Of a DNA stretch of 64,000 nt, positions 38,182 to 61,064 are shown in pieces. The first letter of the stretch is position 1. Each line of letters opens with the position of its first letter. Origin of the DNA: a virus. Taxonomy: Duplodnaviria > Caudoviricetes. A program made the position numbers and the translations under genes. The stretch lies in IMG/VR virus record IMGVR_UViG_3300028048_000106, positions 28,188-92,187 of that record. The stretch is one strand, 5' to 3'. Below the pieces are notes generated by a model. That model was not told the origin of the DNA and made no database searches. It saw only the letters and a program-made list of their open reading frames with translations.

Positions 38182-38187
38182 CTAGCC

Positions 38188-39200: not shown

Positions 39201-39203
39201 GTC

Positions 39204-39719: not shown

Positions 39720-40423
39720 TATGCTGAATACTCTAGAACTAGCTCTTCACCATCCCATGAGCACTCTTCTGCATTCAAGTATGCTAGAAGAGCTGCATGA
39801 AGATGGACAAAGTTCACTTTTATGATGTCATCATTCTCAACTGTCTCAGCATCAAGACTGTAGTCATTGAACTTCACTGTGTAGCCATAGCCTTCTTTGT
39901 CTATGTAGATAGGGTCTCGTGCTGTCTTGAACCTATTGTCAAATGGCGAGTAGCCTTCACCAATGATGCCTACATACTCATTTGAGAGAATGCTCTCAAA
40001 CTTCTTGCTGTACTCTCCTTCAAGGATGTAATCAACTGCTTGAAGCATCTTCTCAGCATCATGTCTTGAGACAATGACTGTGCTGTCTCTAAATGAATAT
40101 GGATTGATGTTGAAGTGCTCTCTTAAGCCAGTGAAGACTGAGCCAAAGTGGAACTCTAGTAGTCTTTCATGCCTAATGCCATCTTCGCTGTAGTACGTAG
40201 TTGTCTTCTTGCTGTCATCAGTGGCTGCCAAACTACTAGACTTGAATCCAGCATGCAGCAATATTGGAATGTCTTTCTTCAAAGCTTCTTCGTCTTTGTT
40301 TGCATTGAAAGAGTCTTTCTTGTTTGCAAGAAAGTACTCGTTCTTCAATGCATCTAGCTCAGCAGTAGAGGCTTTGCTCTTGTTGAACCTACGGTATATT
40401 GTGAGATAAGATCCGTGTGACAT
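39716..40423 (-). CDS. Hypothetical protein
   Basis: 235-aa intact ORF. Confidence 0.6.
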   Translation of the reverse strand: MSHGSYLTIYRRFNKSKASTAELDALKNEYFLANKKDSFNANKDEEALKKDIPILLHAGFKSSSLAATDDSKKTTTYYSEDGIRHERLLEFHFGSVFTGLREHFNINPYSFRDSTVIVSRHDAEKMLQAVDYILEGEYSKKFESILSNEYVGIIGEGYSPFDNRFKTARDPIYIDKEGYGYTVKFNDYSLDAETVENDDIIKVNFVHLHAALLAYLNAEECSWDGEELVLEYSAY

Positions 40424-40469
40424 TGTGCAAGTCTTTCAAGTTAAAGATAGAATGTATGTCTCTAGAAGC

Positions 40470-40862
40470 TCACCAATTAGAGACAATTTCAATATCTAGC
40501 TTGCCATCTTCAGTGGACAGTGTGATGTCATACTGCTCATTATCACCGGGAAAGATGTAGTTGACAGCATTCACAATAGCGCTTGATGCCTCAGAGAACA
40601 TCTGCTTTGTGCAGTTTGCGCCTTTTACAGCATAGACTTTGAACCCAAACTCATGGCCTTTCAAGATGCGGTCTTCATAAGTGACTTTAACTAAGCCATC
40701 TGTCATGCTCTCAAAATATCCCTTGATGTCCTGCAGAATCCCCTCTACAAGCAGTCTACGCATCTTTCCATTGAAGACAATTGCATCTTGCTGCTTTACA
40801 GCAGTGTCTTCTATGGCATTTTTTGCCTTTGCTGCTGCCTTTTTGGCGTTTTCTCTCTTCAT
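40470..40862 (-). CDS. Hypothetical protein
   Basis: 130-aa intact ORF. Confidence 0.6.
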   Translation of the reverse strand: MKRENAKKAAAKAKNAIEDTAVKQQDAIVFNGKMRRLLVEGILQDIKGYFESMTDGLVKVTYEDRILKGHEFGFKVYAVKGANCTKQMFSEASSAIVNAVNYIFPGDNEQYDITLSTEDGKLDIEIVSNW

Positions 40863-40875
40863 AGTCTTCTTTTTG

Positions 40876-41412
40876 TCAAATTCTCTTCAACACGCATGAA
40901 AGTGACCTTCCTTCTAGAGATGGCTTTCCATCAAGTCTAGCAATTCCATCAAAGTTCACTAGAATGCTCCGCATGACATCTTTTGCATATTCAAGCTTGT
41001 CCATCTCGCGCTTTGCCAAGAATATTGTCACTTTCACTGTGTCGCCATCTTCTAGAAACTGCTTTATGTGGGCAATCTTTATGTTTCGATCATTGTCATC
41101 AATGCGAATGGTGAACTTTATCTCTTTAAGTTCAGAGCGACTTGCCCGTAGCTTCTTCATCTGCTCTTTTTGGCGCTTCTTCTCATCATACTTGAACTTG
41201 GCATAGTCAATTATCTTGCATATAGATCCAGGAAACACAGATGGATTGAATGCTATCTGCACAAGGTTCTTACCTTCTGACTTTGCTCTTGCAATAGCAT
41301 CATCTTTTGAAAGTATTGTTGTTTGGCCATCTTGGCCAACTAGTCTGACTTTGCTAGACTTTATAGCATAGTCCATTGGTAGATTTGTCTTGTCATTCTT
41401 GTCTTTTGCCAT
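40876..41412 (-). CDS. infC: Translation initiation factor IF-3 (divergent)
   Basis: VRLVG, NLVQIA, CKIIDYAKFKY, KEIKF..RID, FLEDGDTVKV, EGR; AAGGA SD before ATG 41412. Confidence 0.88.
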   Translation of the reverse strand: MAKDKNDKTNLPMDYAIKSSKVRLVGQDGQTTILSKDDAIARAKSEGKNLVQIAFNPSVFPGSICKIIDYAKFKYDEKKRQKEQMKKLRASRSELKEIKFTIRIDDNDRNIKIAHIKQFLEDGDTVKVTIFLAKREMDKLEYAKDVMRSILVNFDGIARLDGKPSLEGRSLSCVLKRI

Positions 41413-41438
41413 GCTTTCCTTCTTTGCAGTTACACTAG

Positions 41439-42859
41439 GTGAACTAGTCACACCTTGAAAGGTGTGATCTTCAAGTGTTCTTCCTTGCATCTAGTGCAAT
41501 CACTTGATTTTCTTGCTTCAATGTCGGTAGTTTCACGAACACAATTTGTATCATGTTCGCCAGAGCTTCCAACTCCACAAGCGTTTATTCCCGACGTCCC
41601 ATCGGTATTCTTCATAATGTCTCTCAAAGCAAAGTTCCTTATGTTGATAGCTGCATTCAAGTCTCTATCTATTATTATACCACATTCTGGGCATTCATAG
41701 ACTCGGACATCTAATGGCATCTTCTGTCTATGTCCACAGCAATGGCATATTTGGCTTGATGCTTCAAACCTTCCAATCTTCTTGAAGATCTTGCCTTCTC
41801 TCATTGCTTTGTAGTTCAACATAGACGTAAACATGTGCCACCCTAAGTCTGAGACCTTCCTGCCCCAAAGCTTCTTCATCCCTTGCAGACTCAAGTCTTC
41901 AATGCAGAAACAGTCAAATTGGCTTTCTTTGACTAGTCTTGTTGAAGTCTTGTGCAAGAAGTCTTTTCTTTGGTCAGCAATCTTTTGATGAATTTTTGCA
42001 ACTTTCCTTCTTTGCTTCTCTTTGTTCTTGCTTCCTTTTGTCTTCTTGCTTAGTTTTCTTTGTTCTTGTGCTAGCTTGTCTAGCATCTTTTTGAAATATT
42101 GTGGATTGTCAATCTATCTTCCATCTGACAATGTCAAGAAGTGCTTTAAGCCAAAATCAATTCCTAGAGCATTCTTCTTGTTGATGTTGATGTCATCGAC
42201 TAATGGTCTAAAGTCATCCTTTGCATGCACAATGAACGACACATAGTATTGTCCAGAAGAGTTTCTCGAGATTGTTGCTGTTCCAATCTTGCCTTTCTTG
42301 ACTTGTCTTGAGATCTTGACTTTGATTCCATTCTTTCTTGAGAACTTTGGCATCTTGATCTTTGACTCTTTGAAGTCAATCTGGAAATGTTGAGGGATCT
42401 CAAATGAGTCTTTGTCAAACTTCTTTGATTTGAATCTCGGGAAATTTGCTCTACCAGCAAAGAAGTTGTTGAATGCTCGGTCAAGATGGCCAACCGCACA
42501 TATGAGACTCTGTGAGTTGACTTCATAAAGCCAAGGATTTGCTTCTTTGAGTTTTACAGTCTCACCAGAACAACCCAAGCCAATTGAGTTTAAGTACTTC
42601 TATTGAGATGCATATCTTTCTTGATTGAGATGAAGAGCCCAATTGTACATGAAACGAACACAGCCAAAATGCTTAGAAAGAAGAACTTTCTACTCACTAG
42701 TTGGATATATTCGAAATCTATATGTCTCAATCATTTGGTAATAGAGATATTGTACGTTTTACAGTTTTATTTACTCAAGACAAATCATAAACTTCACATG
42801 TATTTCATAGAAAATTCTAGGCAATTCGTATCACACCCTAAAGGATTTGATGTTTCTTG
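41439..42859 (-). mobile_element. tnpB: IS200/IS605-family TnpB-only element #3 (CDS 41448-42734, TAG-recoded)
   Basis: YRFRIYPTSE[Q], FGCVRFMYN, GIDFG, IEDL, SSQICHCCG, CPECG, DRDLNAAINI; hairpin ends. Confidence 0.9.
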
Positions 42860-42938
42860 CTTAGGTACCCTTTAAAATATACATGTTGGCTTGAAAGTAG
42901 CAACGTTTTCAACTAATTTCGATGTAAATAATGACAGC

Positions 42939-43709
42939 ATGAGTGGTAGATCTAATGACATAAAGAAAGAGATCAAGATATCTTAGCTGCCAAGCATAAA
43001 GAACATAAGCAGCGATGATCTTTTGATAATATCAGACTATGATGGTGGCAAGTGCTTGTCTAAGAACATGACAATGCAGTAGCTATAGAACTATGTCAGT
43101 TCTAAAACATTGTCTAGCAATGCATTTAAGACTAAGGTAGAGAGCATTGCAAAGGTACAGCATCTTTTTGACACACGAGAGAATTGGGAGAAAGAGCCAT
43201 TGCGCAGTCTAGTTCTAGAGAAAGGCTAGATTGCATTTGTCAATGACACAGGCCTAGAAGAAGTCATGATGAAAGCTGGCAATGGCATAGACCCATTCTA
43301 CCAGCTTCCATATGTCAGATTTCCAGTTAATGATCCAGCAGAGATAATGGTGAACACAAGAGCTGGTTGGGCAGAATAGCCTGGATTTTAGCCAGCTAAA
43401 GGCTAGATTGTCATTTGGTCTGACAAAGCTTAGATGCACAAGTATGTGCTTGAAGGCGATGAGCTAGTAGACGATGGTTTAATAGATGTCCCTGGCATAA
43501 AGATTGGAGATGGCAATGCATACAATCTTGACTTGCCATATGTTGGAGATGACATTGAGTAGAAGATTGACTAGCACATAAAAGACGTGCAAGCGCATGT
43601 CTCAGAGCAAGATAGGAAGTCTTGGAACCACAAAATCACAATAGGTAATCTTGATACGCCATCTGATGACGGTGTAGAAGGTGAAACACTAATCATAAAA
43701 AGAAACTAA
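42939..43709 (+). CDS. Tail-fibre-associated protein with two Mtd-N-like repeats, TAG-recoded
   Basis: W...VLEKG[Q]I...KAGNG..F..LPY and W..[Q]P...KG[Q]I...KIGDG...LPY; invisible in ORF track. Confidence 0.65.
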
Positions 43710-43729
43710 AAACAAAGGAAAATAAAATT

Positions 43730-45466
43730 ATGGCAAATCCATTCATTAGCCAAATTACCCTTCCTAGTGGAACAACGTATGATATAAAAGACACGCAGGC
43801 GCGTTCTGATATATCTGCTCTTAGCTCTGCTATTGAAGGTGGCGTACATTACATCGGTAAGACCACTACATAGCTTTCAGGTGATGGCGACACCACATCA
43901 TCGGTAGTCATTAACGGTGAGACAGTCGAAGCTAAGCAAGGCGACATGGTCAGTCTTTCTGCACAAGGAAAGCAAGATCTTGAGTTCTTGTTCAATGGCT
44001 CTGCATGGTATGAGCTTGGTTCTACTGGTTCATTGAAGGCTCTCGCATTCAAGGATTCTGCATCTGGTTCATATACTCCTGGTGGTTCAGTCAGTCAGCC
44101 AACATTTGCTGGTAGTGAAATGACTGCTTCAGGCAGCTATACGCCAGCAGGCACACTTGATGCTCCTGCGTTCACTGGTACAGCTGGAAGTGTAAGCGTC
44201 ACTGGTACTGCAGCTGGTACAGTCAGTCAGCCAGAATTCAGCAATGGTGCGGCATCAGTTTCAGCAGAATATACTCCAGCTGGTAGCGTTACGCTTGGTG
44301 GTCAAACGACACAAGATGTCACAATATCAATAGATGAATCTGCGTCTGGAAACTATCAACCAGCTGGTGATGTGACTTAGCCAGACTTTACTAATGGCAC
44401 AATTACAAATGGCAGCGCTTCCTATACAAAGGTGACAGGTGTCACAACCAAGACTACTAAGAGCGTAGGCGTCAGCAAAGGCTCCGGCACGGCAAACTAT
44501 ACGCCAACAGGCAATGTAACAGCTTCATTCTCTGGCGCGGATATGACGTCTACTGGTGAATTTACGCCTACTGGTACTGTTGCCGTTGGAACGACTACAG
44601 CCACAGTGACAGTCGCTGGAACCTAGCCAGCAGAGTCTTCCGAAGTGACATATACACCAGATGGTACTGTATCCGCTCCAACGATCAGTGTCGCCACAGC
44701 AGGTACCACTGATACGGTCAATAGCGCCACAGCCAAGACCGTAGTTACAGACATGAGTGTGGCAGAACCTAGCGCAGGCGAGACGACAGGCGAGCTCGCA
44801 TACTATGCCGTGTCTGGCGAGACGCTTACGTTCAAGAAGTTCATCGAGACTACTGGTAATTCTGTTGATACAACAGCAAAAATTGTTAAGACTGGTGATG
44901 CTACATATACTGCAACTGCTCCGACATTTACTGGTACCGGTGCAAAGCTCGTTACAGATAACATTACTATTCCATCTGGTTCTGGTACGTTCACTGGCAC
45001 CAAGGGCAACGTCAGCGTCACAGGTACGACGACGGGGTCTATCACTGGCCTAGGCTTCACTGGCACAGGTGTAGATCTCGAAGTCCTCGTCCCAGATACA
45101 TATGAAGTCGCGACAGAGACTGGCTCAGCCACAGTTACAGGCAGTGTTACTGGCACGGTCACCAAGCCAAACTTCACTGGTACAAAGGTTGCTATTACTG
45201 CAACTGGTGTCAGTGTTCCAACAAGTGCAACATTTGGTGGCACAAAGACTACAATCACAGCTACTGGTACAGCTACTGGTACAGTCAGTCAGCCAACATT
45301 CACCGGTGGCACTGTTACATCTACTGGAACATTCACACCAGAAGGTACAGTTGCAGCTCCAGTGTTTACTGGCACAGACGCAACAATTACTGTCAAAGGT
45401 ACACCAGCAGGTACTGTCAGCAAACCAAACTTCACTGGTACAGAAGCAACAATCACTGTTAGCTGA
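43730..45466 (+). CDS. Thr/Gly-rich repetitive fibre protein, TAG-recoded
   Basis: Repeated (Y/F)TPxGTVSxPxFTG motifs; AAAGGA SD; three TAG. Confidence 0.75.
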
Positions 45467-45490
45467 TGATAATGAAAGGAGTAAGTGCAC

Positions 45491-46894
45491 ATGGCTACTG
45501 GTAGCATAAGCTAGATAAAGTTGCCTAATGGCAGCACTTACGACCTAAAGGATGCCGGTCTACGCAACTAGACCGGCATCCTTTCCAGCGATGGCGTCAA
45601 TGTCGCAGGCGTAAGTGAAAGCTATTTTCGACCAACTATAAAGGTATTTGACGCAGATCCTGTTCGCATCGACTTAAGTGTAGTCAGGCTTTCAGCAGAT
45701 GACTATGATGAGCTAGTTGCAAATGATGAAGCATTGTCTAATGTCATCTATGTTGTTGATGACGCCAAGATAAATGCATATGATGAGCAGATAAAGAATC
45801 TAGCCGCAGGCGTCGACGACACAGATGCAGTCAATATGGCATAGTTCAACGCAGTCTCTGCGCGTATTGACGACACATACACAAAAGCAGAGACTGACTA
45901 GAAGATTGCAAGTGCACAATACTTCAAGAAGTATGTTGTGCAGACTCTGCCACCAGTCGCAGAAGCTGATGAGCGCGGAATCTACTTAGTGCCTAGTGAT
46001 GATCAATAGACTTCAAATACATATGATGAGTATGTCATCGTAGGAGAAGGATCTTCAAGAGAGTGGGAGAAGATTGGATCTAAGAGCATTGACCTCTCTG
46101 GATACAAGACAAAGCAGACTGCAAAGACAAGTCCAACTGCAAGTGGCACCACAACAGCATTCATTGACACAATATCTCAAGATGAGAATGGTGTCATAAC
46201 TGCTACCAAGAAGAATATTTAGTCAGCAACAACTTAGTAGGCAGGCATCGTCCAGCTGAACAACACGTTGACAAGCACTGCTACTAATCAAGCAGCTACT
46301 GCGAATGTAGTCAAGTTGACTAATGACAAGTTTGCTGACTATTCATTGATATCACATGTGCATGACCAGTACTTGACAGCAGTCCCTTCTGACTACAAGA
46401 CATATAGCGAGACATAGCAGACGCTCAGTGGTGATGGATATGCAACCCAAGACTAGCTAAATGAGAAGTCAACTGTGTCAGTAGACAATGTCAAGGCAGA
46501 TGTCAATTTGCAGCACATATCACAAAAAGACTATGAGCAGCTAGTAGTTGATGATGCTACGCTGAGCAATGCGCTGTATGTTGTCTCGGCTGACTATGTT
46601 GAGTCTTATGGCCAGCAGATAAAGAATGTTGCTCCTGGATCTGACTTGTCAGATGCAGTCAATGTAGAGCAGCTTCTCAGCGCGGTGGGCAATGTGCAAG
46701 TTCCAACTGACTTGAGCTCTTTCAACAACTCTCCTGGATATCTTGTGTCAAGTGACATAAGTGACTACTATTAGAAATCCGAGACAAGCAGTGCAATACA
46801 AATAGCAGTGGCTATTGACAGCATTAGAAATATGATATCTAGTGCTATGACATCAACATATGAATATGCGCAGCATGAGATTGGAGAACAGTAA
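45491..46894 (+). CDS. Tail fibre protein with two YadA-stalk-like motifs, TAG-recoded
   Basis: IKNLAAGVDDTDAVNMA[TAG]F and IKNVAPGSDLSDAVNVEQL; ATT..AGIVQL fibre repeat; N-terminus paralogous to 43730 gene. Confidence 0.75.
45547..45584 (+). terminator. 16-bp perfect hairpin inside 5' end of CDS (possible attenuator)
   Basis: AAAGGATGCCGGTCTA-CGCAAC-TAGACCGGCATCCTTT. Confidence 0.55.
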
Positions 46895-46896
46895 AA

Positions 46897-47094
46897 ATGG
46901 ATATTCCTACGCCAGATATAACCGTTAGAAGTCTTAAATTGTCTGATTAGACATATAGTGGTCGTGTACTATATGATTATTTGTCAGCAAATGAACAATA
47001 CATAAAGTAGTATTTCCACGACCTTTTGTTTGATACCATATTGTCTACGTACGAATATACGTAGGAAGAGATTGAAGGAGACAGCAATATATGA
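46897..47094 (+). CDS. Small hypothetical protein, TAG-recoded
   Basis: Fills gap; ATGA overlap with next gene. Confidence 0.5.
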
Positions 47095-49472
47095 AGAACT
47101 ATCCATCCCTGTCAGCGCTGTTTAGAGATGTCGGTCTGAGCATCGTGAAGAAGCACAAGGCAACAGGCTTGAGCTCGATTTGCCCGCTTGAGTTTGCAGA
47201 GAAGATAGACACGATCGACTAGGCGGAAGATGCAGACAAGGTCGCACTTGGAGAAATCAAAGACCTTTGGTTTTCTATTATAGGTGGTGTCTTGACGATC
47301 TGCTGGAGAGATCCGCTTGATGTAGTGCACGAAGGCTCTGTCATAACTCACTTTGGAGCTACAACGCTCAGAGCCAAGCTAGATGGCTATCCAGTTGGTC
47401 CTGAAGATGGCATATAGATTTACTCTGGAATGACAAGAGACAAGCATGCATCTACTCCACTTGTGGTTGACTTGGACTCACTAGGCTTGATCCAAGATGA
47501 TGGAGAAGGCGGAACTAAGACAATCTACTTCAAGTTCTTCTCTAAGACTTCTGGCAGTGCTTTGCATGATGGAATATGGAACACAGACACTTTGATTGGA
47601 GATGCAAATCAGTTCTCAAGTGAGTCATATGACTGGAGCGCAATCTACTCAGCTTTGAAAGACTACCCTACTGCAAAAGCATTGAGTGTCCTTCCTGAAG
47701 CTGGTTCAAAGGTGTTTGTCAACTACATGATAAGAGACTACTACCTCTCTTCTAGCATAAATGTGGCAGCTGAGACCCGTCAAGATGTTGTCAACAATGC
47801 TGACAAGCTTAGTGCTGTCTCCATTCCATGGACAATTCTCGGCTACAACGCAAATGTCCCACAATATGTTGGATACAAACGGCTTGATGACCTCACTTAG
47901 ACATACAAGTACATGTATGTGCAGTCAATTGATGACTCAGTGTCTTCATGCACGCTATTCAAGACTGATGGAACTTAGGAGACCATTGAGCTTGATGTTG
48001 GAAATAAGCAGTTCAGGAACATTGTTGCTGGATGCTAGACATACACTGAAGATGAGTGGGACTACTAGATCAACAAGAAGTCATATACAAAGAACAACTA
48101 TGTTGTTGATGCCGTGTCAGAGTCTACGTTTGGCTACAACAACGAAGGAACTGGAACATAGAATGTCTATCATGTTCCAGTCAAGATCAGCGCTGATGGG
48201 TATGAATGGGACTTCTGCGGTTACACGATGACAATCTAGCCACAGAATGCTTTGATTTCGATAAACAGGACTAGCAACACTGCAACTGCAACGTACACTA
48301 ACATTTAGTTTGATGCAACAGAGATCAGATACGCTGACATTTTTGAATAGTTCCCAGATGACACTTCTGGAGGCGAGACGTACGTGAGGCTAGAAGCAGA
48401 TGGACTCCATGAGATAGACTGGTCATTGTCAGCTTCGTTGAAAGTCAATGAGCTGCCATATGACGTATACAAAATAGAAGATGGCAGACTTGAGCTTCAG
48501 ACGTCGTATTTCTAGAAGTACTGCGGCTATGCGCTGAAGAGTATCAACGCAGAGACAGGCGCGAATGTATATGAGAACCTAGTCGAGATAGAAGACTTCG
48601 AGATTGGCAAGGCGTACTACACGACGTGCAACGCCAAAGACTACGACAAGACTAACAGAAACCTGAGCGTAGTAGCTGACGTCGTCAGATATGATGGCCA
48701 GTTATACGTCTGCAAAGCCAATGTGGCTATTGGCCAATCCAAAACGTTCGAGCAACTTTCGGCATCGAACTTCAGGGCTTTGTCATCGGCAGCCGAGCTG
48801 TCTGTCAAGGCTTTGTACGACGCCGGCATGTACTTCGTCTCCAGTTAGAAGATGCCATTGACGATGTTTGGCAAGGAGGTTGTTGAGCAGAACATGTTGA
48901 ACTGCTACTTTTACGGGCGCAATGTCTATGAGCAGTCATTCTACAAGCAGTATGCCAACAACATAAATGGATCAAGACGTTTCTCTGATTCACCTTACAA
49001 GCCACAGCACAAGCACGATGTTGTGTCTACTGCAGGTTTGGCAAATGCAAATAGTCTGATGTTGAAGCTGTACAAAGAGCAATAGATGATTAGGCATATA
49101 GTTCCTGCTGTGAACAGGACAGTTGTGTCTCCTATTAATGGACCATTTCGGCCAGACACATACACTAAAAACAATAGATAGACATGGGAGACTTCGATTG
49201 ACTTGTTCTGGCCATTAGCGAACTATGAGGTGTTCGGCTCTGGAGCAGATGCCAGCAGCACGTTCTCGAAGGTTTATCCAGACAATGCATCAAGAATAAA
49301 GACAAATCTTGCTGCAGATGGATCTTCATCTGCTAGTTCCGTGAAATGGTGGCTGCGTGATCCTACTACTGGCAACTCTTCCAATGAGTACCTTGTCTAC
49401 ACTTCTGGAGCATCCAACACCTACCTTGCCAACTACTCTTATGGCTTTGTCCCAGCTTGCATAATCGGATAA
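47091..49472 (+). CDS. DGR target: putative receptor-binding protein with C-terminal C-type-lectin-fold (DUF6273-like) domain, TAG-recoded
   Basis: 793 codons open with only TAG; FWPLANYEVFG...WWLR...GFVPAC; carries the VR. Confidence 0.85.
49331..49460 (+). repeat. DGR variable repeat (VR)
   Basis: 130 nt ungapped match to 50397-50526; 14 of 15 mismatches are at TR adenines. Confidence 0.95.
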
Positions 49473-49482
49473 TCGTTTAATC

Positions 49483-49499
49483 GGCCGCGTCAAGCGGCC
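49483..49499 (+). promoter_or_regulatory. GC-rich hairpin downstream of VR (DGR homing element)
   Basis: GGCCGC-GTCAA-GCGGCC, 10 nt after target stop; absent after TR. Confidence 0.7.
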
Positions 49500-49540
49500 A
49501 CTGATAAGCAAAAACATTAGATTGTGTAAGAAAAACTAGT

Positions 49541-49888
49541 ATGAGAGATATTATAAACATAGGAAAATTGATAGATCTCAGCTAGTATGGCATGGAGACG
49601 ACACCAAAAATGGATGTTGTCCATATAAGTGACTTAGATGGCAAGACAATAGTCATATAGAACATAGGTGAGTTCACCTCTAAGAGATATGGGAAAAAGG
49701 GAATCAAGGCAGAGATCTTGGTAGACGGAAAATAGAAGCTGCTGTTCACGACGGCTGTCATCATAATGAAGCAGCTTCTGGACATATAGACAAAGTTCAT
49801 AGTCAACAAGCTAGACTTCTAGAACATCAAGTGCAAAGTATAGAAAATAGATGGAAAGTACTTTAAGTTGGTTGACAGTGAAGAGTAA
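49541..49888 (+). CDS. Small DGR-embedded hypothetical protein, TAG-recoded
   Basis: 115 codons, only TAG stops; HISDLDGKTIVI...LFTTAVIIMKQL. Confidence 0.65.
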
Positions 49889-49918
49889 AAAAGTGAAAAC
49901 GTAGAGAAGTTGAATACT

Positions 49919-50368
49919 ATGGCGGTCCCTGCATACAAGAGAAATGAGAACAAGCTAGATGTCTTGAACATCGCAATGGCGGTATTTGAGATGGCGGTCT
50001 CTCTTGTCAAGAATGACTAGCTGCTGTCAAAGAAGAACTACAAGATAGTGGCAGAGCCAATGATGGCAAACATACGCAATCTGATGTACAAGATATCGCT
50101 AGCAAACAACATATTCGTTAAGACCGAAGAGACTAAGAAAAAGAGGATGATGCTATAGCTTAGCGCAAGAGAATATGCCATACAGCTTTAGGTAGATGTG
50201 CAGTTGATAATGAAGCTTTCAGCTGACTAGAAGCAGTTGGTCATCTGCAACAAGCTGATAGAAAAGATAGATGAGCTGAAGACAAAGATTGCTGGGTGGA
50301 TCAAATATACGGCAAAACAGGAGATTTTCAATGCAAGAGAAGAAGCTGGAGAGCAAAAACAAGACTAA
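49919..50368 (+). CDS. avd: Avd-like DGR accessory protein, TAG-recoded
   Basis: MAVPAYKRNENKL start, ANNI...R, I.GW end, basic four-helix pattern, directly upstream of TR. Confidence 0.8.
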
Positions 50369-50396
50369 TGTGCAGATTTGGCAGCATCTCAATAAA

Positions 50397-50526
50397 TGCT
50401 AGTTCCGTGAATTGGTGGCTGCGTAATCCTAATACTGGCAACTCTAACAATGAGTACAATGTCAACACTTCTGGAGCATCCAACAACAACAATGCCAACA
50501 ACTCTAATGGCTTTGTCCCAGATTGC
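50397..50526 (+). ncRNA. DGR template repeat (TR)
   Basis: AAC/AAT-rich (15 Asn codons) copy of VR between avd and RT. Confidence 0.93.
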
Positions 50527-50718
50527 TTTGTTTGCTGCCAAGAGATGCATGGCAATGGTGAAAGTATGCAATGCAGAAATCCTAAGCCATAGTGTGGCAG
50601 CAATATGCAAGGGAGATGCCGCTCAAGGCATTCGCCAAACATGCTAAATGATGCTAGATATGCTCTAAGCTGCAGTCAGATGCACTGGCAAGTCAAGCTA
50701 GACACATTTGCATAGCAT

Positions 50719-51849
50719 ATGTCTGCTAATAGAAGTCCAGCATTTCCAGTTTCTTCTCTTCATCCTTTTTTGTCTAAGCCATCTAAGTTTGTTTAGATGT
50801 TGACTCCAGAAATATTAGCAGATGCCGCTAGGAAGTGCGCACGTGGAGTTAGGTGGAAGACATCAGTGACTACATGGATGTTCAACTTAGTCTAGAACTG
50901 CAATAGACTTTGTAGAAGCATCAAGACAGGCACATACAAGCTCTCTAAGTATATTGTGTTCAAGACATTTGACAAGAAACCACGCATTATACACAGCACT
51001 AGGTTTTCAGACAGAGTGGTCTAGATGGCTATGTGTGATAATGGACTTCTTGAAGACCTTTGCAGACCATTGATATATGAGAATGGAGCATGCTTAGAAG
51101 GAAAGGGCTTCACATTTACATTCAACTTAGTCTCTAATCATCTGAGGAAATTCTATTTGCATGAAGGCCAGCATACAAATGCCGGTTGGTATGTCAAAGC
51201 TGATGTCAAGAAGTTCTTTGACAGCACTCCTCACAAGATTTTGAAGAATTGTGTTGCGAAGACTTTTAAAGATTCTTGGATGATTTAGTAGGTGGATGAC
51301 ATCATTGATTCGTTCAACATCAACGATACTAATGAAAAAACAGATGGATTTGGAACAAGAGGTGTTGGCCTTGGCAGCTAGATAAGCTAGCTGCTCTAGA
51401 TTCTAGTCCTCAACGGCTTAGATCATACGATGAAGCAGAAGTTCAAAGCCAAGCACTACATAAGGTACATGGATGACATCTTAGTCTTGGTTGAGTCTAA
51501 AGACAAAGCTAGCGCAGCTTTATGTGAGATCAGGCATCAGCTGGAGCAGATAGGCTTGGAACTGAATGCTAAGTCGAGAATAGGACGAATACAAGATGGA
51601 TTCACATTCTTGAATGTCAACTTCAGGTTGACGTCAACAGGCAAAGTGAAGAAGAAGCTTGGAAAAAAGACTATTAGAAGAGAGCTAAGCCGGTTGAAAA
51701 CTTTAGCACGCAAATTGAAATCTGGGCACCTATAGTACAGAGACTTCTTGCAACATGTCAATAGCTGGTTTGGGTCTAACATATGCAAAATGTCTAGAGG
51801 CTAGGTGAAGTTTTTGAGAAGAGCTATATCAATCTGTCTGCAAAAGTAA
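50719..51849 (+). CDS. DGR reverse transcriptase, TAG-recoded
   Basis: KPRII, DRVV[Q], ACLEGKG, KADVKKFFDS, GVGLGS[Q]IS[Q], RYMDD, FTFLN; start codon uncertain. Confidence 0.92.
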
Positions 51850-51870: not shown

Positions 51871-52233
51871 ATGATGTCAAAACTAATAAAGATACTGTCA
51901 AAAGAGCAGTTTGAAGATGAGACTCTTGTCTCAAAGCTTCGTAGAGACTACACCGCTGACACTTCAGAACAGACTCAAGCTGAGTTTGAAGCTGCATGTG
52001 AAGTGTTTAGGCAAGTATGCAGAGACATTGAAACTGCAACAGGAATTCAAGGGTTCAAAGGCGGGTTTGATGAGATGCTTGCATTCCAACAGTCTGAAGT
52101 GGCAACAACCCAAGCTGGTTTTGCTCTTGCAATTAGATGGAGTGCAGCTGACAAGCTTTGCACATACCTTGCAAACAAGATGAAGATTGGCCAACCAGCA
52201 TGGTGGAAGAAATGCTGGGGAATTGAAGAGTGA
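51871..52233 (+). CDS. Hypothetical late protein
   Basis: GTAAATA and GAGG upstream; 120 aa. Confidence 0.6.
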   Translation: MMSKLIKILSKEQFEDETLVSKLRRDYTADTSEQTQAEFEAACEVFRQVCRDIETATGIQGFKGGFDEMLAFQQSEVATTQAGFALAIRWSAADKLCTYLANKMKIGQPAWWKKCWGIEE

Positions 52234-52367: not shown

Positions 52368-53261
52368 TCAATCTACCATCTTCTGCACTCTAGACAAACT
52401 TACTATAGGCACTATGCTCTGCCATTGAGTTGAACTGTCTTCTCTTATGCTCAGTGTTGCTGACCATGGAGAGTCAAGGTCTTTGTCAATGCTCAATGAC
52501 ACGCATCCAATGAATAGCTTCTTGTCATATAGACTGTCTTTGCATGACAAGTCATCAACAATGACCTCTGCATCTGCTGCCATCCGTGGGCAGTTGCTGT
52601 CTACTACATAGTCTTTGAAGAGTGGGGCTTTCTTGCAGCCATACTTTGTGAAGTCAAATTGACATCTATACTTGCCATTCACGACAAATGAGTCAGTGTG
52701 CTCTAGACTAAGCAGCATGCTGTGCATTGCCTTTCCATCCATTGGAATGCCAAGCGCTTTCTGCACTTGACAGATGTCATCTTTGCAGAAGCCTTTGCAT
52801 GGATCTACTTTGACAATGTGCTTATGCACATGCTCTAAGCTGTCTTCTACTGCATATGTGTCATCATCAAGCACGGCGTATGACTCAACTAAGTTGTCTA
52901 CTGTGAAGTCATCAATAGCTTTGATCTTTGCATCTCCAACTGCATCAGCATGCTTGCCAACAAACACATCTCCAACTATTCTCTCTTTCAGCCAAGGCAG
53001 CATCTCAAGAAATGCAATTGGGCTCATGCTGCAGTTCTGCTCTTCTGCATCTCTATGCTTAGCCCAATCAGACAGCCACACAATGCGCAGCTTTGGCTCT
53101 GCATCAACAAAGGCTTTCAATGCCTCAACTGCTGGCTTGTGCAAGCAGACACAGTAGTCAGCATATGTGTCACAGTACAAGTCTTTGCCATTCTCTGCCT
53201 TGTTCAAGACACCATCAATGTCAAGAAACAAGACTTTCTCAATGCTTTTGATGTAGTGCAT
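52368..53261 (-). CDS. HAD-superfamily (RNA-repair-like) domain plus unknown C-terminal domain
   Basis: LFLDIDGVLN, IVWLSDW, YAVLDD, DPCKGF. Confidence 0.72.
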   Translation of the reverse strand: MHYIKSIEKVLFLDIDGVLNKAENGKDLYCDTYADYCVCLHKPAVEALKAFVDAEPKLRIVWLSDWAKHRDAEEQNCSMSPIAFLEMLPWLKERIVGDVFVGKHADAVGDAKIKAIDDFTVDNLVESYAVLDDDTYAVEDSLEHVHKHIVKVDPCKGFCKDDICQVQKALGIPMDGKAMHSMLLSLEHTDSFVVNGKYRCQFDFTKYGCKKAPLFKDYVVDSNCPRMAADAEVIVDDLSCKDSLYDKKLFIGCVSLSIDKDLDSPWSATLSIREDSSTQWQSIVPIVSLSRVQKMVD

Positions 53262-53270
53262 ATTGCCTCC

Positions 53271-54173
53271 TTACATGCTCTCACAGGCTAGCAGCTCAAT
53301 GCCTGATATCCCATCTATTCCATCTGCATCATCTTCACAGTAGATGTAGAAGTCACCATAGCCATCGCCAGAGTTTGCAATCCTGACATAGAACAGTGCA
53401 TCTCCATGCGCAATTCTAGCTTCAAGTGCATCTAAGTCTTCCCATCTAGCAAGATCTACCACATAGCCTCTAGAAATGAGGTCTCTTGTGTTGTCAATGG
53501 TGTCTTTTGTTATTTGGTAGGTGTCAATTGACTCAAAGCACACATTAGCACTTGCTCTTCTGTCTGCTGCCACATGTGCCTTAGCAATCTCTACAATCGC
53601 CTTCACACGCCTGTCAATCTCTTCTGCTGTCTCTTGCCTACTGCCAGCTCCATTGAAGTGGTATCTGTTGAATGTTGACTCCATTGTGCTGTTTGGCACA
53701 ACAATCCCTTGTGCATAAGTCTTCTCATAGTGGACAGCTGTGTCAGTAGCCTCGTCATACTCGTCAAGACTGTAGGCGTCTTTCTCCCAGTCATATACAG
53801 AGCCATGTCTAGATTGTCCATCTTTGATGCTCTTCAGCACATTCTTGTAGTGCTCCCACTCTTTTTCAGCAGCTTTGCTTGCATTTGGGTCTTTTCTGCC
53901 CGATATCCATATCTTCTTGAAGTAGTCTAGACTGTACTTCACAGCTTTTGTCTTGACAAGAAGCTTTCCTATGAATGCAAGCTGGAAAGTCCTTACACAG
54001 AAGTCTAGTATGCACTTGTTGCGGCCAGCTAGTGCCTTGTCATGGTATGGAGACCTCTTGTTTGTACATGACTTGGCTAAGTCTTTCAGCACATCATCTA
54101 GATACTGCTTCTGGCAGGCAACTACAAAACTGCTGCTTGAGCTGTTGCTCACAAAGTCTACTCTTGCTTTCAT
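53271..54173 (-). CDS. SNSSSSSF-motif protein 2
   Basis: MKARVDFVSNSSSSSF; ATG 6 nt after TACAAT. Confidence 0.75.
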   Translation of the reverse strand: MKARVDFVSNSSSSSFVVACQKQYLDDVLKDLAKSCTNKRSPYHDKALAGRNKCILDFCVRTFQLAFIGKLLVKTKAVKYSLDYFKKIWISGRKDPNASKAAEKEWEHYKNVLKSIKDGQSRHGSVYDWEKDAYSLDEYDEATDTAVHYEKTYAQGIVVPNSTMESTFNRYHFNGAGSRQETAEEIDRRVKAIVEIAKAHVAADRRASANVCFESIDTYQITKDTIDNTRDLISRGYVVDLARWEDLDALEARIAHGDALFYVRIANSGDGYGDFYIYCEDDADGIDGISGIELLACESM

Positions 54174-54209
54174 AGTAACATTGTACTCTATTTTCGACAG
54201 CCTCACCAA

Positions 54210-54623
54210 TCATGCTTGTCTACTTTCCCACTCTTGGCACAGTATGCCATTCTTTGAAAGCCACTCAGCTACGATGTGCCTATGGCAGAACTTCTCCGGC
54301 GTCTCATAGCACAAGATGAAAGTTGGGTTCCACTCTGCCAAGTCTTTCAGCTCTCTTGCTGTAGACAAAGGGTCAAGGATGTTCAGCACAGTCTTGCAGT
54401 ATCTGCTAGTGTACCACTTTCTTGACTCTTCGCTTTCTAGAGAGTCTTTGAACATGCTGTGCCACTCTCTCCACCAACTCCAATGTGGCATCAATGGCTT
54501 GTACTTCTCTCCTTTGAACCAGTCAGGCGTCTTTCCTGCAATAGACACTAGCCTAGCATCTGGGACAGTGGCAAGTATCTTCTCTATGTTTCCAAAGTAG
54601 CTTGTGTACACCATAGCTGTCAC
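54210..54623 (-). CDS. DUF488-like protein
   Basis: YTSYF, VSIA..P, L.P, ILCYETPEKFCHRHIVAEWL. Confidence 0.75.
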   Translation of the reverse strand: MTAMVYTSYFGNIEKILATVPDARLVSIAGKTPDWFKGEKYKPLMPHWSWWREWHSMFKDSLESEESRKWYTSRYCKTVLNILDPLSTARELKDLAEWNPTFILCYETPEKFCHRHIVAEWLSKNGILCQEWESRQA

Positions 54624-55438
54624 CCTTCATGGAATATGCAGTGGACAACACCTTCATCTAAGAAGTCTTTCCATGTGTAGATGTCACCATTCAGCCAAGA
54701 CACTCTGTTTGGCATGCGCTTCTTGCTGTCTTCATCAAGTGGGTATTTCTCTAGCAGTTTGGGGTCTATAGGGTCAATCTTCTTCAATTCTACTAGTCTT
54801 GCAAACAGTATCTCAATGAATCTAGCACATGAGTAGGCCGGCGACTCAAATCTCACGTCTTTGCCTTGCTTGCTGTCTTGACTGTCTTTCTGGCCATCTT
54901 CATCTATTCCATCTATGGACATTATGTCGTTTTCACCGAAATGTATGAATAGATGTGTGCCATTGTCTAGAAGCACTTCATCAGCTTTCTTTATCTCTAG
55001 TTTTCTACGAGCTTCTCTAATAGTCTCTTTAATGTATTCTGGTGCATCAGAATGAGCTAGGCTGTCTTCGTCACCATTTGAAAGATACCAACTATGGTCT
55101 ATAGCCTCTAAGCTTCTAAGAAGACTCTTGAATACTTGCGCCTGCTCTTTAACTGGATCCCAAGCATCATCCATGTTTGGAAACTCTTGATTCCAGAACT
55201 CTAGCATTTGGCCAAATGCACGGACTGCTTTCGCTCTGTCTTTAGGCATCTCATACACAACAAATGGCCTAGACAGCTCATCTTTGCTGTCAAGATCTAC
55301 TTTGCCATCTATCCATAGACTAGCAAGCGCTTCTTCAATGTCTGCCTTGCCAATCTTGAAGTGTGTGAATATCTCAGTCTTAGATATTATGAAGCTTGAG
55401 CTTGAGCTGTTTGACACAAAGTCTTGACGTGCTTTCAT
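54620..55438 (-). CDS. SNSSSSSF-motif protein 3
   Basis: MKARQDFVSNSSSSSF. Confidence 0.75.
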   Translation of the reverse strand: MKARQDFVSNSSSSSFIISKTEIFTHFKIGKADIEEALASLWIDGKVDLDSKDELSRPFVVYEMPKDRAKAVRAFGQMLEFWNQEFPNMDDAWDPVKEQAQVFKSLLRSLEAIDHSWYLSNGDEDSLAHSDAPEYIKETIREARRKLEIKKADEVLLDNGTHLFIHFGENDIMSIDGIDEDGQKDSQDSKQGKDVRFESPAYSCARFIEILFARLVELKKIDPIDPKLLEKYPLDEDSKKRMPNRVSWLNGDIYTWKDFLDEGVVHCIFHEG

Positions 55439-55463
55439 GTCTTTATCTTACAATGCCTAGAGA

Positions 55464-55742
55464 TTAGTTAGATGCTTGTTTCTTGGGCCTAGCATATTTG
55501 TCTGCTTTCCAATATCCAGGATCAGCATACATGATCTTGCAGAGCTGTGGAAGAAGCTTTTCAGGAGGGTATCCACCAGGATAGTCGCCTTCACACTGCG
55601 CAGCATGGCGCAGCTCTTGGTCTATCTCTTGAAGAGTGTATGCCATGTTCAAAGCTTCATCAAACAAGCTTTGGTAGACAAGGTCTGGAACCATTCGTTC
55701 CTGGGGCTTCTCGCTTTTAGGTGTCTTCTTCTTGCTCATCAT
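55464..55742 (-). CDS. Hypothetical protein
   Basis: Intact ORF in operon. Confidence 0.55.
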   Translation of the reverse strand: MMSKKKTPKSEKPQERMVPDLVYQSLFDEALNMAYTLQEIDQELRHAAQCEGDYPGGYPPEKLLPQLCKIMYADPGYWKADKYARPKKQASN

Positions 55743-55743
55743 G

Positions 55744-56217
55744 TCAGTCTTCCTTTGATATCTCTATCTCAATGTAAGAGTCAACCATCTTTGTCATCTT
55801 GTCGCACGGGTCATTGTCTTCACATGAGAAGTAGTTCATCTCAAATGGTATGCTGTACTTCAGCATTGTTGGAAAGCCTTTCTTCATCTTCTTGACATCA
55901 ATCTTTGCCAAGTCAGCATCAACTCTCTTCTTCAACTCAAGGCGCCCATTGTAGTATGCCTTTATCACATTGACTCTAGTGTCTGACAGCTTAGGCTCGC
56001 GGTTTGTGTCAAAGTCTTTCCTAATCTCTTTTTCAGTCAACTTCTTCTTTGGTGCATCTAAGAAGCCATCCAGTATCTGCTTGAATATCTTCTCATCATG
56101 CGCAACATACTCTTCAATGTTCCTGTGCTGTACAATAGAGCTCTTCTCTGGGCAGTCACTTGCCCAATATGGCTCTACAAAGTCATTGAACAACTTCACT
56201 CTATATCTTGTATTCAT
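55744..56217 (-). CDS. Hypothetical protein
   Basis: Intact ORF, GGAGG SD. Confidence 0.6.
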   Translation of the reverse strand: MNTRYRVKLFNDFVEPYWASDCPEKSSIVQHRNIEEYVAHDEKIFKQILDGFLDAPKKKLTEKEIRKDFDTNREPKLSDTRVNVIKAYYNGRLELKKRVDADLAKIDVKKMKKGFPTMLKYSIPFEMNYFSCEDNDPCDKMTKMVDSYIEIEISKED

Positions 56218-56229
56218 CTTGCCGCCTCC

Positions 56230-56766
56230 TCAATGGTTACTGTACACTCTGTAGAACTTAGGGTTATGCAGATGTGCAAAAGAGTCTCTCATGTCTTCTT
56301 CATCATTACTTTCATCATCGCCTCTTGGCTCATCTGACGCTACTACCTCAACAATATCGATGTCTTTCCACTGTGGCTCAAGGACCGCATAGAGTGCATC
56401 AGCAATCTCATTCTCAATGCTGTGCACATTCTCCAACTTAGCTGTTCGAGCTTCAGATCTGTCAAACTTAGCGTCAACATATGCTCGCTCATACTTTTCG
56501 ACAAGCTTTTTAACTGACTTAGGAAGTATGCCAAATGTCCCACTGCCAAAGTGCTTTGAGTAGTCTTCATCTGCAATGAACTTGACTGAGCTCGTTGACA
56601 TGTCTCTAAAATATCCCCAAGTGTCTCTTCTCCAGTTATGATGCAGAAAATCTCTAAGCTCAAGAGAGTAGTCATCTCCATACACTGCAATAGTGTCAAG
56701 GTCTTCTCTTGTGCAGATGAAGCTTGAGCTTGAGCTGTTGCTTACAAAATCACTTCTTGTCTTCAT
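56230..56766 (-). CDS. SNSSSSSF-motif protein 4
   Basis: MKTRSDFVSNSSSSSF. Confidence 0.75.
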   Translation of the reverse strand: MKTRSDFVSNSSSSSFICTREDLDTIAVYGDDYSLELRDFLHHNWRRDTWGYFRDMSTSSVKFIADEDYSKHFGSGTFGILPKSVKKLVEKYERAYVDAKFDRSEARTAKLENVHSIENEIADALYAVLEPQWKDIDIVEVVASDEPRGDDESNDEEDMRDSFAHLHNPKFYRVYSNH

Positions 56767-56786
56767 AGTTCAATATCCTCTACATC

Positions 56787-57227
56787 TTATTTCTCATACT
56801 TGGCTTTCAGTCGTCTAAGCAAATCTTTCTCTTCTGATTCCAGCCTAGCTTTGTCTCGAGCTTCTTCATCATCGCAAATTTTCTCATATTCCGCCTTATA
56901 GTCATATCCTTCGTCAAGCCATCTCAATGGAAATGAGATGTTCTCCATGTCATATGAGCAAGCTGTCATGCACTTCTCAGACTTGTAGTCAGTTGGACTA
57001 TGATAGTATAGATAAGTGTTTTCAATGAAGAACTCACTGCAGTCTTTGAAGTTAGGCTCGTATGTGTCCTGTATCACTTTCTCAATCTTATGCTTAATAG
57101 GGTCAACAAGCATGTCAATAGCTTTGACTTTGCTCTCTATTGAAAGGCCATCAAACAGCTTCTTGATCTTTGAGACAGCTTCTGCCTCTATTTTCTTGCT
57201 CTTAGCATCTTTATCTTCTTTTCTCAT
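56787..57227 (-). CDS. Hypothetical protein
   Basis: Intact ORF, ATGA overlap. Confidence 0.6.
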   Translation of the reverse strand: MRKEDKDAKSKKIEAEAVSKIKKLFDGLSIESKVKAIDMLVDPIKHKIEKVIQDTYEPNFKDCSEFFIENTYLYYHSPTDYKSEKCMTACSYDMENISFPLRWLDEGYDYKAEYEKICDDEEARDKARLESEEKDLLRRLKAKYEK

Positions 57228-57631
57228 TCTTCTGGAAACTCCAATGCGCCATAGTATGTAGTGTGGGCTTCTGGGTCTTCATATATCTTGAACTTCACAG
57301 GAGCTCCATCTACTGTGTCTGCCATCTTGTCAAATCTCTTCATGTACTGTGTGTCATGGTCTTCACCAGCATCGCACTTCACCCAATTGCCAACTTCAAG
57401 CTGAGTGATCTGCCTATTGTCTATGCCTTCTTTGCTCCAAGGGTCACTGGTGTACCAAGAGTCCCATCTACAGACTGCATCAAAGTCTTGGTACAGTGAC
57501 AAGCTCACTTCTCTTGAGTCAAACTTCTTGACAAGCTCCTTGAATGCTTCAACTGCTTCTTGAGTGTCTAGCTCAATGAAGAAGCTGCAGCTTGAGCTGT
57601 TTGAAACATAGTCAGTCCTGATCTTCATCAT
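57224..57631 (-). CDS. SNSSSSSF-motif protein 5
   Basis: MKIRTDYVSNSSSCSF. Confidence 0.75.
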   Translation of the reverse strand: MMKIRTDYVSNSSSCSFFIELDTQEAVEAFKELVKKFDSREVSLSLYQDFDAVCRWDSWYTSDPWSKEGIDNRQITQLEVGNWVKCDAGEDHDTQYMKRFDKMADTVDGAPVKFKIYEDPEAHTTYYGALEFPEE

Positions 57632-58583
57632 CTATCTCCTCTTCACCATCTTCTTGTGCAGCATGGCACGTGGCATCTGCCTTAGCTTTCTCTTCAGCAT
57701 ACTGCTTCTTTGTCATGACTTCTTTGCCTGCTTGCCAGACAGATCCATTCATGACATACTGCTGTCCAGTCTTGTCTGCACACTCTTGACAGAGATATGC
57801 AATCCATCCACGTGTTGTGCAGCGTGGAGAGTATGTGCTCTTGCTTGATATGTAATGTCCACAATGCTCACAGACATTGTAGCAGTCTTTCTCAGCTTTT
57901 GCCACTATGTCTCGCGCTTTGTCTTCAAGAATCTTTGAAATGCAATTCTGAGCATGTGATGGTTCGAAGTCAAACAGCCTAGATGGCCAATTCTCAATGA
58001 AATACCTTCTATCGAGAAGCCAGTCCATCAACTTGTGCTTTGTTGCCACAGAATGTGTCCTCTTATAGTGGTGGTATGTTGCTCTTCTTATGAACTTGCC
58101 ATCTTTCTCAAAGACTTCTACATTGCAGCAGTTCTTGTTTGCCTCTTTCTCTTTCTCAAACTCTTCTCGTGATGCAAGCTCTTTCTCAACAACCTCATCA
58201 TAAGCATCTTTGTCAAGGACTTCAACTCTCTTGAAGTCTAGCTTTGAGATCTTGTCAAAGATGCTATGGAAAAGCCTGTTCCATGCACACATCCACTTTG
58301 GAGGGTCTGCAACTATAGAGTAGTAGAAGTGCAGAGTTCCATACTTCTCTTTGACTTGGTCTGCTTGGACTCTGACTCTGAACTTAGGGTACATCAAGTA
58401 GTTCAATGCTTCTAGACGCTGTGAAGCATCGTCAATTGCATTGAGCCAACCATTGTTCACTTCAAGTCCCCAGCACATGCAAGTCTCTGTACATGGCCGA
58501 CTTCTCATGCAGTACAAAATCTTGTTGCTATGCAAGATGCTGTACTTCAAATTCTCTGCGTTTTCACTGCTCATCTTCATCAA
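57612..58583 (-). CDS. Conserved phage protein with Zn ribbon
   Basis: GW...QVKEKYGTLHFY...CEHCG...GW...CQEC. Confidence 0.7.
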   Translation of the reverse strand: MMKMSSENAENLKYSILHSNKILYCMRSRPCTETCMCWGLEVNNGWLNAIDDASQRLEALNYLMYPKFRVRVQADQVKEKYGTLHFYYSIVADPPKWMCAWNRLFHSIFDKISKLDFKRVEVLDKDAYDEVVEKELASREEFEKEKEANKNCCNVEVFEKDGKFIRRATYHHYKRTHSVATKHKLMDWLLDRRYFIENWPSRLFDFEPSHAQNCISKILEDKARDIVAKAEKDCYNVCEHCGHYISSKSTYSPRCTTRGWIAYLCQECADKTGQQYVMNGSVWQAGKEVMTKKQYAEEKAKADATCHAAQEDGEEEIDDEDQD

Positions 58584-59401: not shown

Positions 59402-59404
59402 AAG

Positions 59405-59809: not shown

Positions 59810-59821
59810 ATATAGATAGTA

Positions 59822-61057: not shown

Positions 61058-61064
61058 GACGGTG

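Follow-up and report, generated by a model that had tools for sequence, protein, structure and literature searches.

Diversity-generating retroelements (DGRs) are very common in gut phages (PMC8241571). In the Bordetella phage BPP-1, the site of priming is set by pairing between the template repeat (TR) and the spacer, and the RNA around them wraps the complex of the reverse transcriptase (RT), bRT, and the accessory protein Avd (PMC6182149; bioRxiv 10.1101/2023.10.23.563531); homing in this phage also needs a hairpin, and the hairpins of phage DGRs have GC stems of 7-10 bp and GRNA tetraloops and lie 4-34 bp after the variable repeat (VR) (PMC3240598). In infant-gut phages, an RT with several in-frame TAG codons lies beside recoded tail-protein targets, and the VRs change over time (bioRxiv 10.1101/2023.08.07.552389); Zeta crAss-like phages have amber-dependent RTs with a GxxxSQ motif (PMC12386605), and for both groups it has been stated that the standard code breaks the recoded DGR genes into fragments (bioRxiv 10.1101/2023.08.07.552389; PMC12386605). 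Here we analyse a locus at positions 47091-51849 of a 64,000-nt stretch of viral DNA, called the window below, which comprises bases 28188-92187 of the linear 92,187-bp IMG/VR virus record IMGVR_UViG_3300028048_000106. Judging from its sequence, we put the probability at roughly 90% that this locus is a functional DGR of the avd-TR-RT type, residing in a gut phage of ~270 kb in which TAG encodes glutamine.

Read with TAG as glutamine, the plus strand of the locus carries, in this order, the target gene with the VR at its end, a GC hairpin, a small open reading frame (ORF), avd, the TR, a putatively structured spacer and the RT gene; apart from the spacer, these are the order and the frames that an earlier note, written from the letters alone, had listed. 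The target, the small ORF, avd and the RT each require read-through of TAG. Classified as in PMC5758913, it is a cassette of the avd-TR-RT layout (architecture B1) with one nested ORF.

Variable and template repeats differ almost only at adenines

The target gene (47091-49472, plus strand) begins with an ATG at 47091, ends with TAA and encodes 793 aa, with 14 in-frame TAG codons. Its last 47 codons hold the VR (49331-49460, plus strand), which forms with the TR (50397-50526, plus strand) a 130-nt direct repeat of 88% identity. Fourteen of the 15 mismatches have A in the TR and G, C or T in the VR, and in the target frame all 14 affect the first or second codon position; with 39 A among the 130 TR bases, the chance of at least 14 of 15 mismatches falling at A is ~5e-7. 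The remaining mismatch, T in the TR and A in the VR, is found at 49346, in codon position 3. One of the adenine sites stands apart from the others: the A/C mismatch between 50522 (TR) and 49456 (VR) is fixed in every relative that was compared, even in a lineage with an RT of only 45% identity, and because of this fixation we read it as the mark distinguishing IMH from IMH* (IMH, initiation of mutagenic homing) and not as a scar of mutagenesis. The earlier tally of 14 A-specific substitutions and one T>A over 130 nt is therefore right as a count of mismatches, but on this alignment the number of mutagenic VR sites is 13 after the IMH/IMH* difference is removed. The TR contains 15 AAY codons in the target frame, which would allow ~4e17 protein variants of the target tip.

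We annotate the 3' end of the VR (49443-49460, plus strand; GGCTTTGTCCCAGCTTGC) as IMH-like; its fixed C at 49456, opposite the fixed A at 50522 in the TR, gives an identical A/C difference in the window and in the relatives L012, L010, L003 and L005/L006. The GC hairpin (49483-49499, plus strand; GGCCGC-GTCAA-GCGGCC), a candidate for the target-site hairpin or cruciform of the DGR, lies 22 nt past the VR and 10 nt past the stop codon, with no T-run after it. From the stop codon to the end of the hairpin the sequence is kept in L012, L010, L008 and L009, although the DNA beyond it is unrelated in L008 and L009; at this position L003 has another hairpin (7 bp, loop GTTA). No hairpin follows the TR.

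These relatives (numbered with L) are metagenomic contigs, several of them labelled gut metagenome, which were reached through RT homologues and through target-tip fragments called with the standard code (code 11); all need TAG to be read as glutamine. A search of the phage collection for near-identical DNA found none, and searches of viral_contigs by RT peptide patterns and by the A-masked VR/TR pattern returned no relatives. L012 is 96.9% identical to the window over 7.5 kb, and L010 (= L011) is 92.4% identical. A more distant lineage, L005/L006/L007, with an RT 45% identical to that of the window, is represented by a 240-kb contig; relatives also lie on a contig of 317 kb.

Comparison with L012 reveals very uneven divergence along the locus: 0.4% in avd, 0.8% in the TR, 1.5% in the RT and 4.5% in the target upstream of the VR, against 16.2% in the VR itself, where 18 of the 21 differences lie at sites with A in the TR. 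In L010, five non-A substitutions in the TR are also present in its own VR; as far as sequence comparison can tell, this is direct comparative evidence of copying from TR to VR. L005 and L006, two assemblies, have identical TRs and VRs that differ at A sites, and VR and TR mismatch at A only in L003, L006 and L007. None of the working parts (RT, Avd, TR, the IMH-like end, hairpin and spacer) is damaged, and nowhere else is the locus so well conserved. The earlier note had suggested looking for polymorphism at A positions of the VR, and had named an invariant VR together with an inactivated RT as evidence that would speak against a DGR; A-site variation is present between close relatives and the RT is intact. 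Since the VR has been rewritten at A sites while TR, avd and RT stayed nearly unchanged, and since TR changes have been copied to the VR, we suggest that the element has homed recently, and very probably it is an intact, recently active DGR. The window together with L012, L010, L008 and L009 also forms a natural variant set in which to see which tip residues vary.

The reverse transcriptase and the spacer in front of it

The RT gene (50797-51849, plus strand; 350 aa, 9 TAG) matches Pfam RVT_1 (6e-19) and PHROG 1423 (1e-82), and has the motifs LGSQISQ (51370-51390) and YMDD (51466-51477). As the earlier note had recognized, the TAG codons at 51379 and 51388 provide both glutamines of GLGSQISQ. 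The best match among solved structures is the Bordetella bRT in its ribonucleoprotein (8ub7, 6e-18), ahead of group II (2.7e-13) and retron-type (~1e-12) enzymes; in the alignment to this protein (Brt), the TAG-encoded glutamines at DRVVQ and GxxxSQ are both conserved in Brt. The NCBIfam models for group II RTs (103 bits, cut-off 300) and retron St85 (36 bits, cut-off 235) fail their cut-offs, and those for Drt and AbiA score far below theirs. A quick maximum-likelihood tree, drawn with retron, Abi and UG RTs left out, places the RT with the DGR RTs of BPP-1 (Brt), Nostoc and Halomonas, whereas clustering outside DGR RTs was what the earlier note had named as refuting, and a branch with 99% support in the Shimodaira-Hasegawa-like approximate likelihood ratio test separates this group from three group II RTs; the Nostoc and Halomonas reference RTs adjoin genes annotated as avd or four-helix bundle. 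When the RT was compared with phages by tblastn, the matches included phages already known to carry DGRs (Bordetella, the Faecalibacterium phages FP_Mushu and FP_Brigit, Vibrio VP585, and Bacteroides and crAss-like records) and phage nd12. On plasmids, the full-length matches that were fetched (Nostoc, Halomonas) lie in DGR-type cassettes, and group II RTs match over at most two thirds of the length.

The RT most plausibly starts at the ATG at 50797. A longer frame with TAG read as glutamine, from a GTG at 50296 to 51849, was considered and rejected as the RT gene: it merely crosses TR and spacer and lacks conservation, since L003 and L005 have separate frames. Gene calls made elsewhere with TAG as glutamine do over-extend the RT across the TR, giving public proteins of 427-469 aa (P0005, P0006; P0072 combines RVT_1 with DUF6273).

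The 270-nt spacer between the TR and the RT (50527-50796, plus strand) is a candidate for the structured part of the DGR RNA. Blocks within it are conserved among relatives whose RTs are only 53-64% identical. From an alignment of six sequences, which represent about four lineages, RNAalifold proposes 48 pairs; 94.5% of the cells are paired and 22 pairs have changed on both sides, compared with 0-5 such pairs in controls where the partners were slid by 1-3 columns. We regard this as suggestive, not proof, of a covarying structured RNA. An invariant GCAAGGG in the spacer (50607-50613) could pair with the 3' end of the TR, by way of CCC at 50517-50519 and TTGC at 50523-50526. The spacer RNA and the hairpin are comparable with elements that BPP-1 needs (PMC3240598, PMC6182149, bioRxiv 10.1101/2023.10.23.563531). 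No Rfam family was matched within the window.

The avd gene and the small basic ORF

The avd gene (49919-50368, plus strand; frame open from 49910) contains four TAG codons and encodes 149 aa from the ATG at 49919; the pI of 9.4 is in line with the basic character of described Avds (PMC5758913). The protein alone has no direct match in Pfam, PHROGs, NCBIfam, PADLOC or the PDB sequences, and its homology emerged only with a deeper family alignment. A profile of four orthologues reaches 193 proteins of ~135-145 aa, and among 82 relatives 13 match Pfam bAvd (PF22296) and eight match 23S_rRNA_IVP (PF05635). Aligned by hhalign to the Avds of BPP-1, Nostoc and Halomonas, the family scores 92% probability (E 6.7e-7, 104 columns), and its hidden Markov model matches the annotated Nostoc Avd at 8e-7. 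A glutamine that is near-invariant in the family, Q83 of the window protein, is encoded by TAG. The AlphaFold model (mean predicted local distance difference test score, pLDDT, 90.6) is a four-helix bundle with four long helices; it matches 2gsc (Z 16.8) and 2rld (Z 16.3), both of the IVP family, the Avd chains of 8ub7/8ub8 (Z 15.4-15.5; 8ub8_C 15.5) and 4dwl (Z 14.6, root-mean-square deviation 1.8 over 108 residues), scores that exceed those of unrelated helical bundles by a small margin. Taken together, the family profiles and the predicted fold support the view that this ORF encodes an Avd homologue.

Between the hairpin and avd lies the small basic ORF (49541-49888, plus strand; 115 aa, 6 TAG, pI 9.1). 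Homologues occupy the same place between target and avd in L003, L005, L008, L010 and L021; in the last of these, a standard-code relative, the homologue is at L021:3607-4098 and the likeness is visible only in the alignment. A variant layout in the same RT clade is that of L020 (2600-6095), where the small ORF is missing and the order is target-TR-avd-RT. In L012 the homologue is split across two frames (L012:3265-3682), which reflects a frameshift or an assembly error. Searches of Pfam, PHROG, NCBIfam and PDB with the protein gave no match, and a profile of six sequences likewise has none in Pfam or PDB. Four classes of DGR accessory gene have been described, namely avd, HRDC, MSL and CH1, and it is unusual for an ORF nested in a DGR cassette to be conserved (PMC5758913). 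Two possible roles for the small ORF are that of a DGR accessory gene outside these classes and that of a chaperone specific for the target. We consider it unlikely that it goes as far as constituting a fifth class of accessory factor, one that is no passenger and moves with the cassette of this clade and its covarying spacer RNA, with a role in cDNA handling or target maturation. A minus-strand ORF at 49477-50181 was rejected in favour of the conserved plus-strand small ORF and avd.

The phage decodes TAG as glutamine

Three lines of evidence support the conclusion that the phage decodes TAG as glutamine (genetic code 15): the rise in ORF coverage when TAG is sense, the interchange of TAG with CAG and CAA in relatives, and the presence of TAG at conserved glutamines of the RT and Avd. 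ORFs of at least 150 aa cover 57% of the window with TAG as a stop and 92% with TAG as sense, and for the whole record the coverage rises from 61% to 94%; the G+C content is 42-43%. At the TAG positions of the window's DGR genes, the relatives have TAG 68 times and CAG or CAA 59 times, compared with 42 for all other codons combined. The glutamines in question are the near-invariant one of Avd and those of DRVVQ and GxxxSQ in the RT.

With 9 in-frame TAG codons in the RT, four in avd and 14 in the target, the earlier statement that all three contain several is borne out. Its warning that pipelines using code 11 would see only fragments also describes what is found in the public gene calls on L008, L010 and L012, where target and RT are split into pieces of 30-190 aa.

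The diversified protein

Residues 700-792 of the target match Pfam DUF6273 (PF19789) with 29.7 bits, against a cut-off of 23.5, over profile positions 79-170 of 172, and the match ends together with the VR. DUF6273 has been modelled as C-type-lectin-like with the VR on a surface hairpin (PMC10743442), and VRs sit at its C-terminal end (PMC11792537). In our view the tip of the target probably forms a ligand-binding surface of C-type-lectin-like fold, carried by a tail fibre or by another virion-surface protein. No Ig-like domains were detected in the target by the Pfam scan. Full-length homologues of the target number two, at 59% and 49% identity, and orthologues are present in L008-L012. An apparent likeness to influenza B haemagglutinin (E 4e-4), obtained with a profile that included the L005 target, was gone with an alignment of closer homologues and is treated as noise. 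The contig of P0013, whose RT belongs to the same clade, has two tandem DUF6273 target genes ahead of the cassette.

Upstream of the target lies a gene (45485-46894, plus strand; 469 aa, 11 in-frame TAG) with fibre-like repeats, which matches Pfam YadA_stalk (3e-13) and Phage_fiber_2 (3e-6) and the tail fiber family PHROG 2126 (1.6e-7). The earlier note had placed the locus at the end of a tail-fibre operon; this label rests on that one gene and is, from the sequence, not established.

Genomic surroundings

The record is ~34% complete according to CheckV, corresponding to a full genome of roughly 270 kb. On a gene map based on codon usage, the cassette closes a TAG-rich block on the plus strand (42891-51849), in most genes of which TAG makes up as much as about half of the glutamine codons, or more. 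A TAG-poor block on the minus strand (37405-42734) flanks it on one side. Beyond the cassette, 16 consecutive minus-strand genes (52368-63998), without a single in-frame TAG, converge on the TAG-rich DGR operon; the first of them (52368-53261) has a HAD_SAK_2 domain. Elsewhere, TAG-rich genes include those for the portal (13 TAG), the terminase large subunit (TerL; 13 TAG) and a gp55-like late sigma factor (8 TAG).

Immediately after the RT comes an acidic ORF, orf120 (51871-52233, plus strand; 120 aa, no TAG, 9 CAA/CAG codons), a conserved neighbour of the DGR. Its conservation is limited to the closer relatives: homologues follow the RT in L003, L004, L008, L010 and L012, and were not detected in L005, L020 and L021; orf120 has no family match. 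An IF3-like gene (IF3_N and IF3_C) is located near the DGR in L005/L006 (4845-5393) and in L010 (976-1512). Two TnpB/IS605-OrfB-like genes (PHROG 506) were also observed in the window: one at 41448-42734 on the minus strand, with the Pfam domains OrfB_IS605 and Cas12f1-like TNB, needs three TAG read-throughs, and the other, at 35412-36704 on the plus strand, has no TAG.

Proposed mechanism and timing

By analogy with BPP-1, we suggest that the RT-Avd complex would bind a transcript spanning the TR and the downstream spacer, and that the TR RNA would then be reverse transcribed with misincorporation opposite adenines. The VR, at the end of the gene for the 793-aa target, would then be exchanged for the mutated cDNA, the direction of transfer being set by the IMH-like VR end and by the GC hairpin just past the stop codon. 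This diversification probably takes place late in infection, on replicated genomes and before packaging.

Without read-through, the RT ends at codon 33 and Avd at codon 34, their first TAGs. With in-frame TAG codons in RT, avd and target alike, the DGR would work only while TAG is read through, and because this dependence on TAG is common to the DGR genes and to those for the portal, the terminase and the late sigma factor, diversification late in infection is probable. That it is confined to the late phase, as the earlier note had proposed, is a reasonable inference from the TAG dependence and from the TAG usage shared with late genes. It draws on a model that Borges and colleagues are said to have put forward in Nat Microbiol in 2022, in which recoding separates early from late genes. 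If so timed, the diversification of a surface protein would be tied to the stage of infection at which TAG is read through.

Weighing the alternatives

Several observations weigh against a functional DGR that varies a lectin-like tip late in infection. The AlphaFold model of target residues 560-793, built from nine sequences, has a pLDDT of 34.5 and is unusable, which leaves the fold of the tip unconfirmed, and the N-terminal 690 residues of the target have no match in Pfam, PHROG or NCBIfam. The hairpin agrees with published phage DGR hairpins in position and G+C, but its 6-bp stem and 5-nt loop (GTCAA) fall outside the published pattern of 7-10 bp and GRNA (PMC3240598). The T>A at 49346 occurs in the window genome alone, and activity is deduced across different assemblies, not from polymorphism within one sample. 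No tRNA genes were found in the entire 92-kb record, which is ~34% of the genome, and a suppressor tRNA(CUA) was thus not seen; the late timing, finally, is reasoned from codon usage.

The private T>A is what would be expected of drift after homing had ceased, and a recoded gut phage that has lost its RT has been described (bioRxiv 10.1101/2023.08.07.552389), so that the cassette of the window genome might be a recently silenced fossil whose VR pattern dates from earlier homing in the lineage. We think this very improbable: over 130 nt there is a single mismatch at a base other than A, the working parts listed above, from RT to spacer, are not only intact but better conserved than the rest of the locus, and the nearest relatives, at 92-97% identity, each have a rewritten VR. 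A functional DGR, which we prefer, could in turn diversify something other than a receptor-binding fibre, such as a Hoc-like or 'tentaclin'-like adhesin on the virion surface that binds mucus or other ligands, in which case no switch of tropism would follow. The sole function-labelled PHROG match of the target is to a 'Hoc-like head decoration' family, by way of the DUF6273/VR segment, and DUF6273 is found in tentaclins and Hoc-like proteins (PMC10743442, PMC11792537); the 398-aa target of L005 lies among glycosyltransferase and IF3 genes, not tail genes, and the large N-terminal part of the window's target, as said, belongs to none of the families searched. Set against this, the target gene stands after the fibre-like gene, on the same strand and with the same TAG usage, and the targets of phage DGRs are mostly tail or receptor-binding proteins (PMC12386605, PMC10743442). 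We regard such an adhesin as a possible but rather unlikely identity for the protein.

A different matter is whether the code switch gates the DGR to any purpose, or whether the TAG codons in RT and avd are simply the ordinary codon usage of late genes. The latter would explain why TAG is a large share of the glutamine codons across the whole plus-strand block 42891-51849 and also in the portal, TerL and late sigma factor genes; it is in line with the free interchange of TAG and CAG/CAA between relatives and with the presence of the same cassette in the standard-code relative L021. On the other side, the dependence is absolute whatever its origin, given the stops at RT codon 33 and Avd codon 34, and orf120 next door, with 0 TAG among 9 glutamine codons, marks a sharp change of TAG usage at gene boundaries. 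We consider the chances of ordinary usage to be evenly balanced.

Comparison with known systems

Among the systems that come close is the BPP-1 element (mtd-VR-hairpin-avd-TR-brt; NC_005357). Its genes are arranged in the order and orientation seen here: the target ends in the VR, and there are an IMH-like fixed end, a GC hairpin just past the stop codon and a spacer between TR and RT. Both elements have a four-helix-bundle Avd (Z 14.6 to 4dwl, as a model), and the RT of the window, whose best solved-structure match is 8ub7, has DRxVQ, GxxxSQ and YMDD in common with that of BPP-1. As to differences, BPP-1 is a 42-kb temperate podovirus whereas the window belongs to a jumbo gut phage with TAG as glutamine. 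The window element also has an extra conserved ORF between VR and avd and a 270-nt spacer; its target tip is DUF6273 where that of BPP-1 is of the Mtd family, and its hairpin has 6 bp and a 5-nt loop instead of 8 bp and GAAA.

With the recoded DGR phages of the infant gut and of the Zeta group the likeness is in the dependence of the RT on TAG. Those phages are crAss-like or other smaller ones, whereas the phage of the window is ~270 kb, a distinction that is drawn from descriptions only; moreover, most Zeta DGRs are without avd (PMC12386605), while the element described here has avd and a further conserved ORF. The DUF6273 targets of Faecalibacterium and other gut phages, tentaclins included (PMC10743442, PMC11792537), share with the window's target the position of the VR at the C-terminus of DUF6273. 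RT identity to FP_Mushu, FP_Brigit and nd12 is only 27-34%, and the target of the window is, at 793 aa, much longer than those proteins, with 690 N-terminal residues outside known families.

DGRs of recoded phages have thus been published already, and the gain from the present case is incremental; mildly new are its place in a jumbo phage, the conservation of the small basic ORF and the covariation in the spacer. What the locus offers beyond this is a clean, fully resolved case of a jumbo phage that combines an alternative code with targeted hypermutation. It also has a practical side for annotation pipelines and DGR surveys, in which it speaks for code-aware detection: the standard code hides such elements, and gene calls with code 15 run the RT back over the TR.

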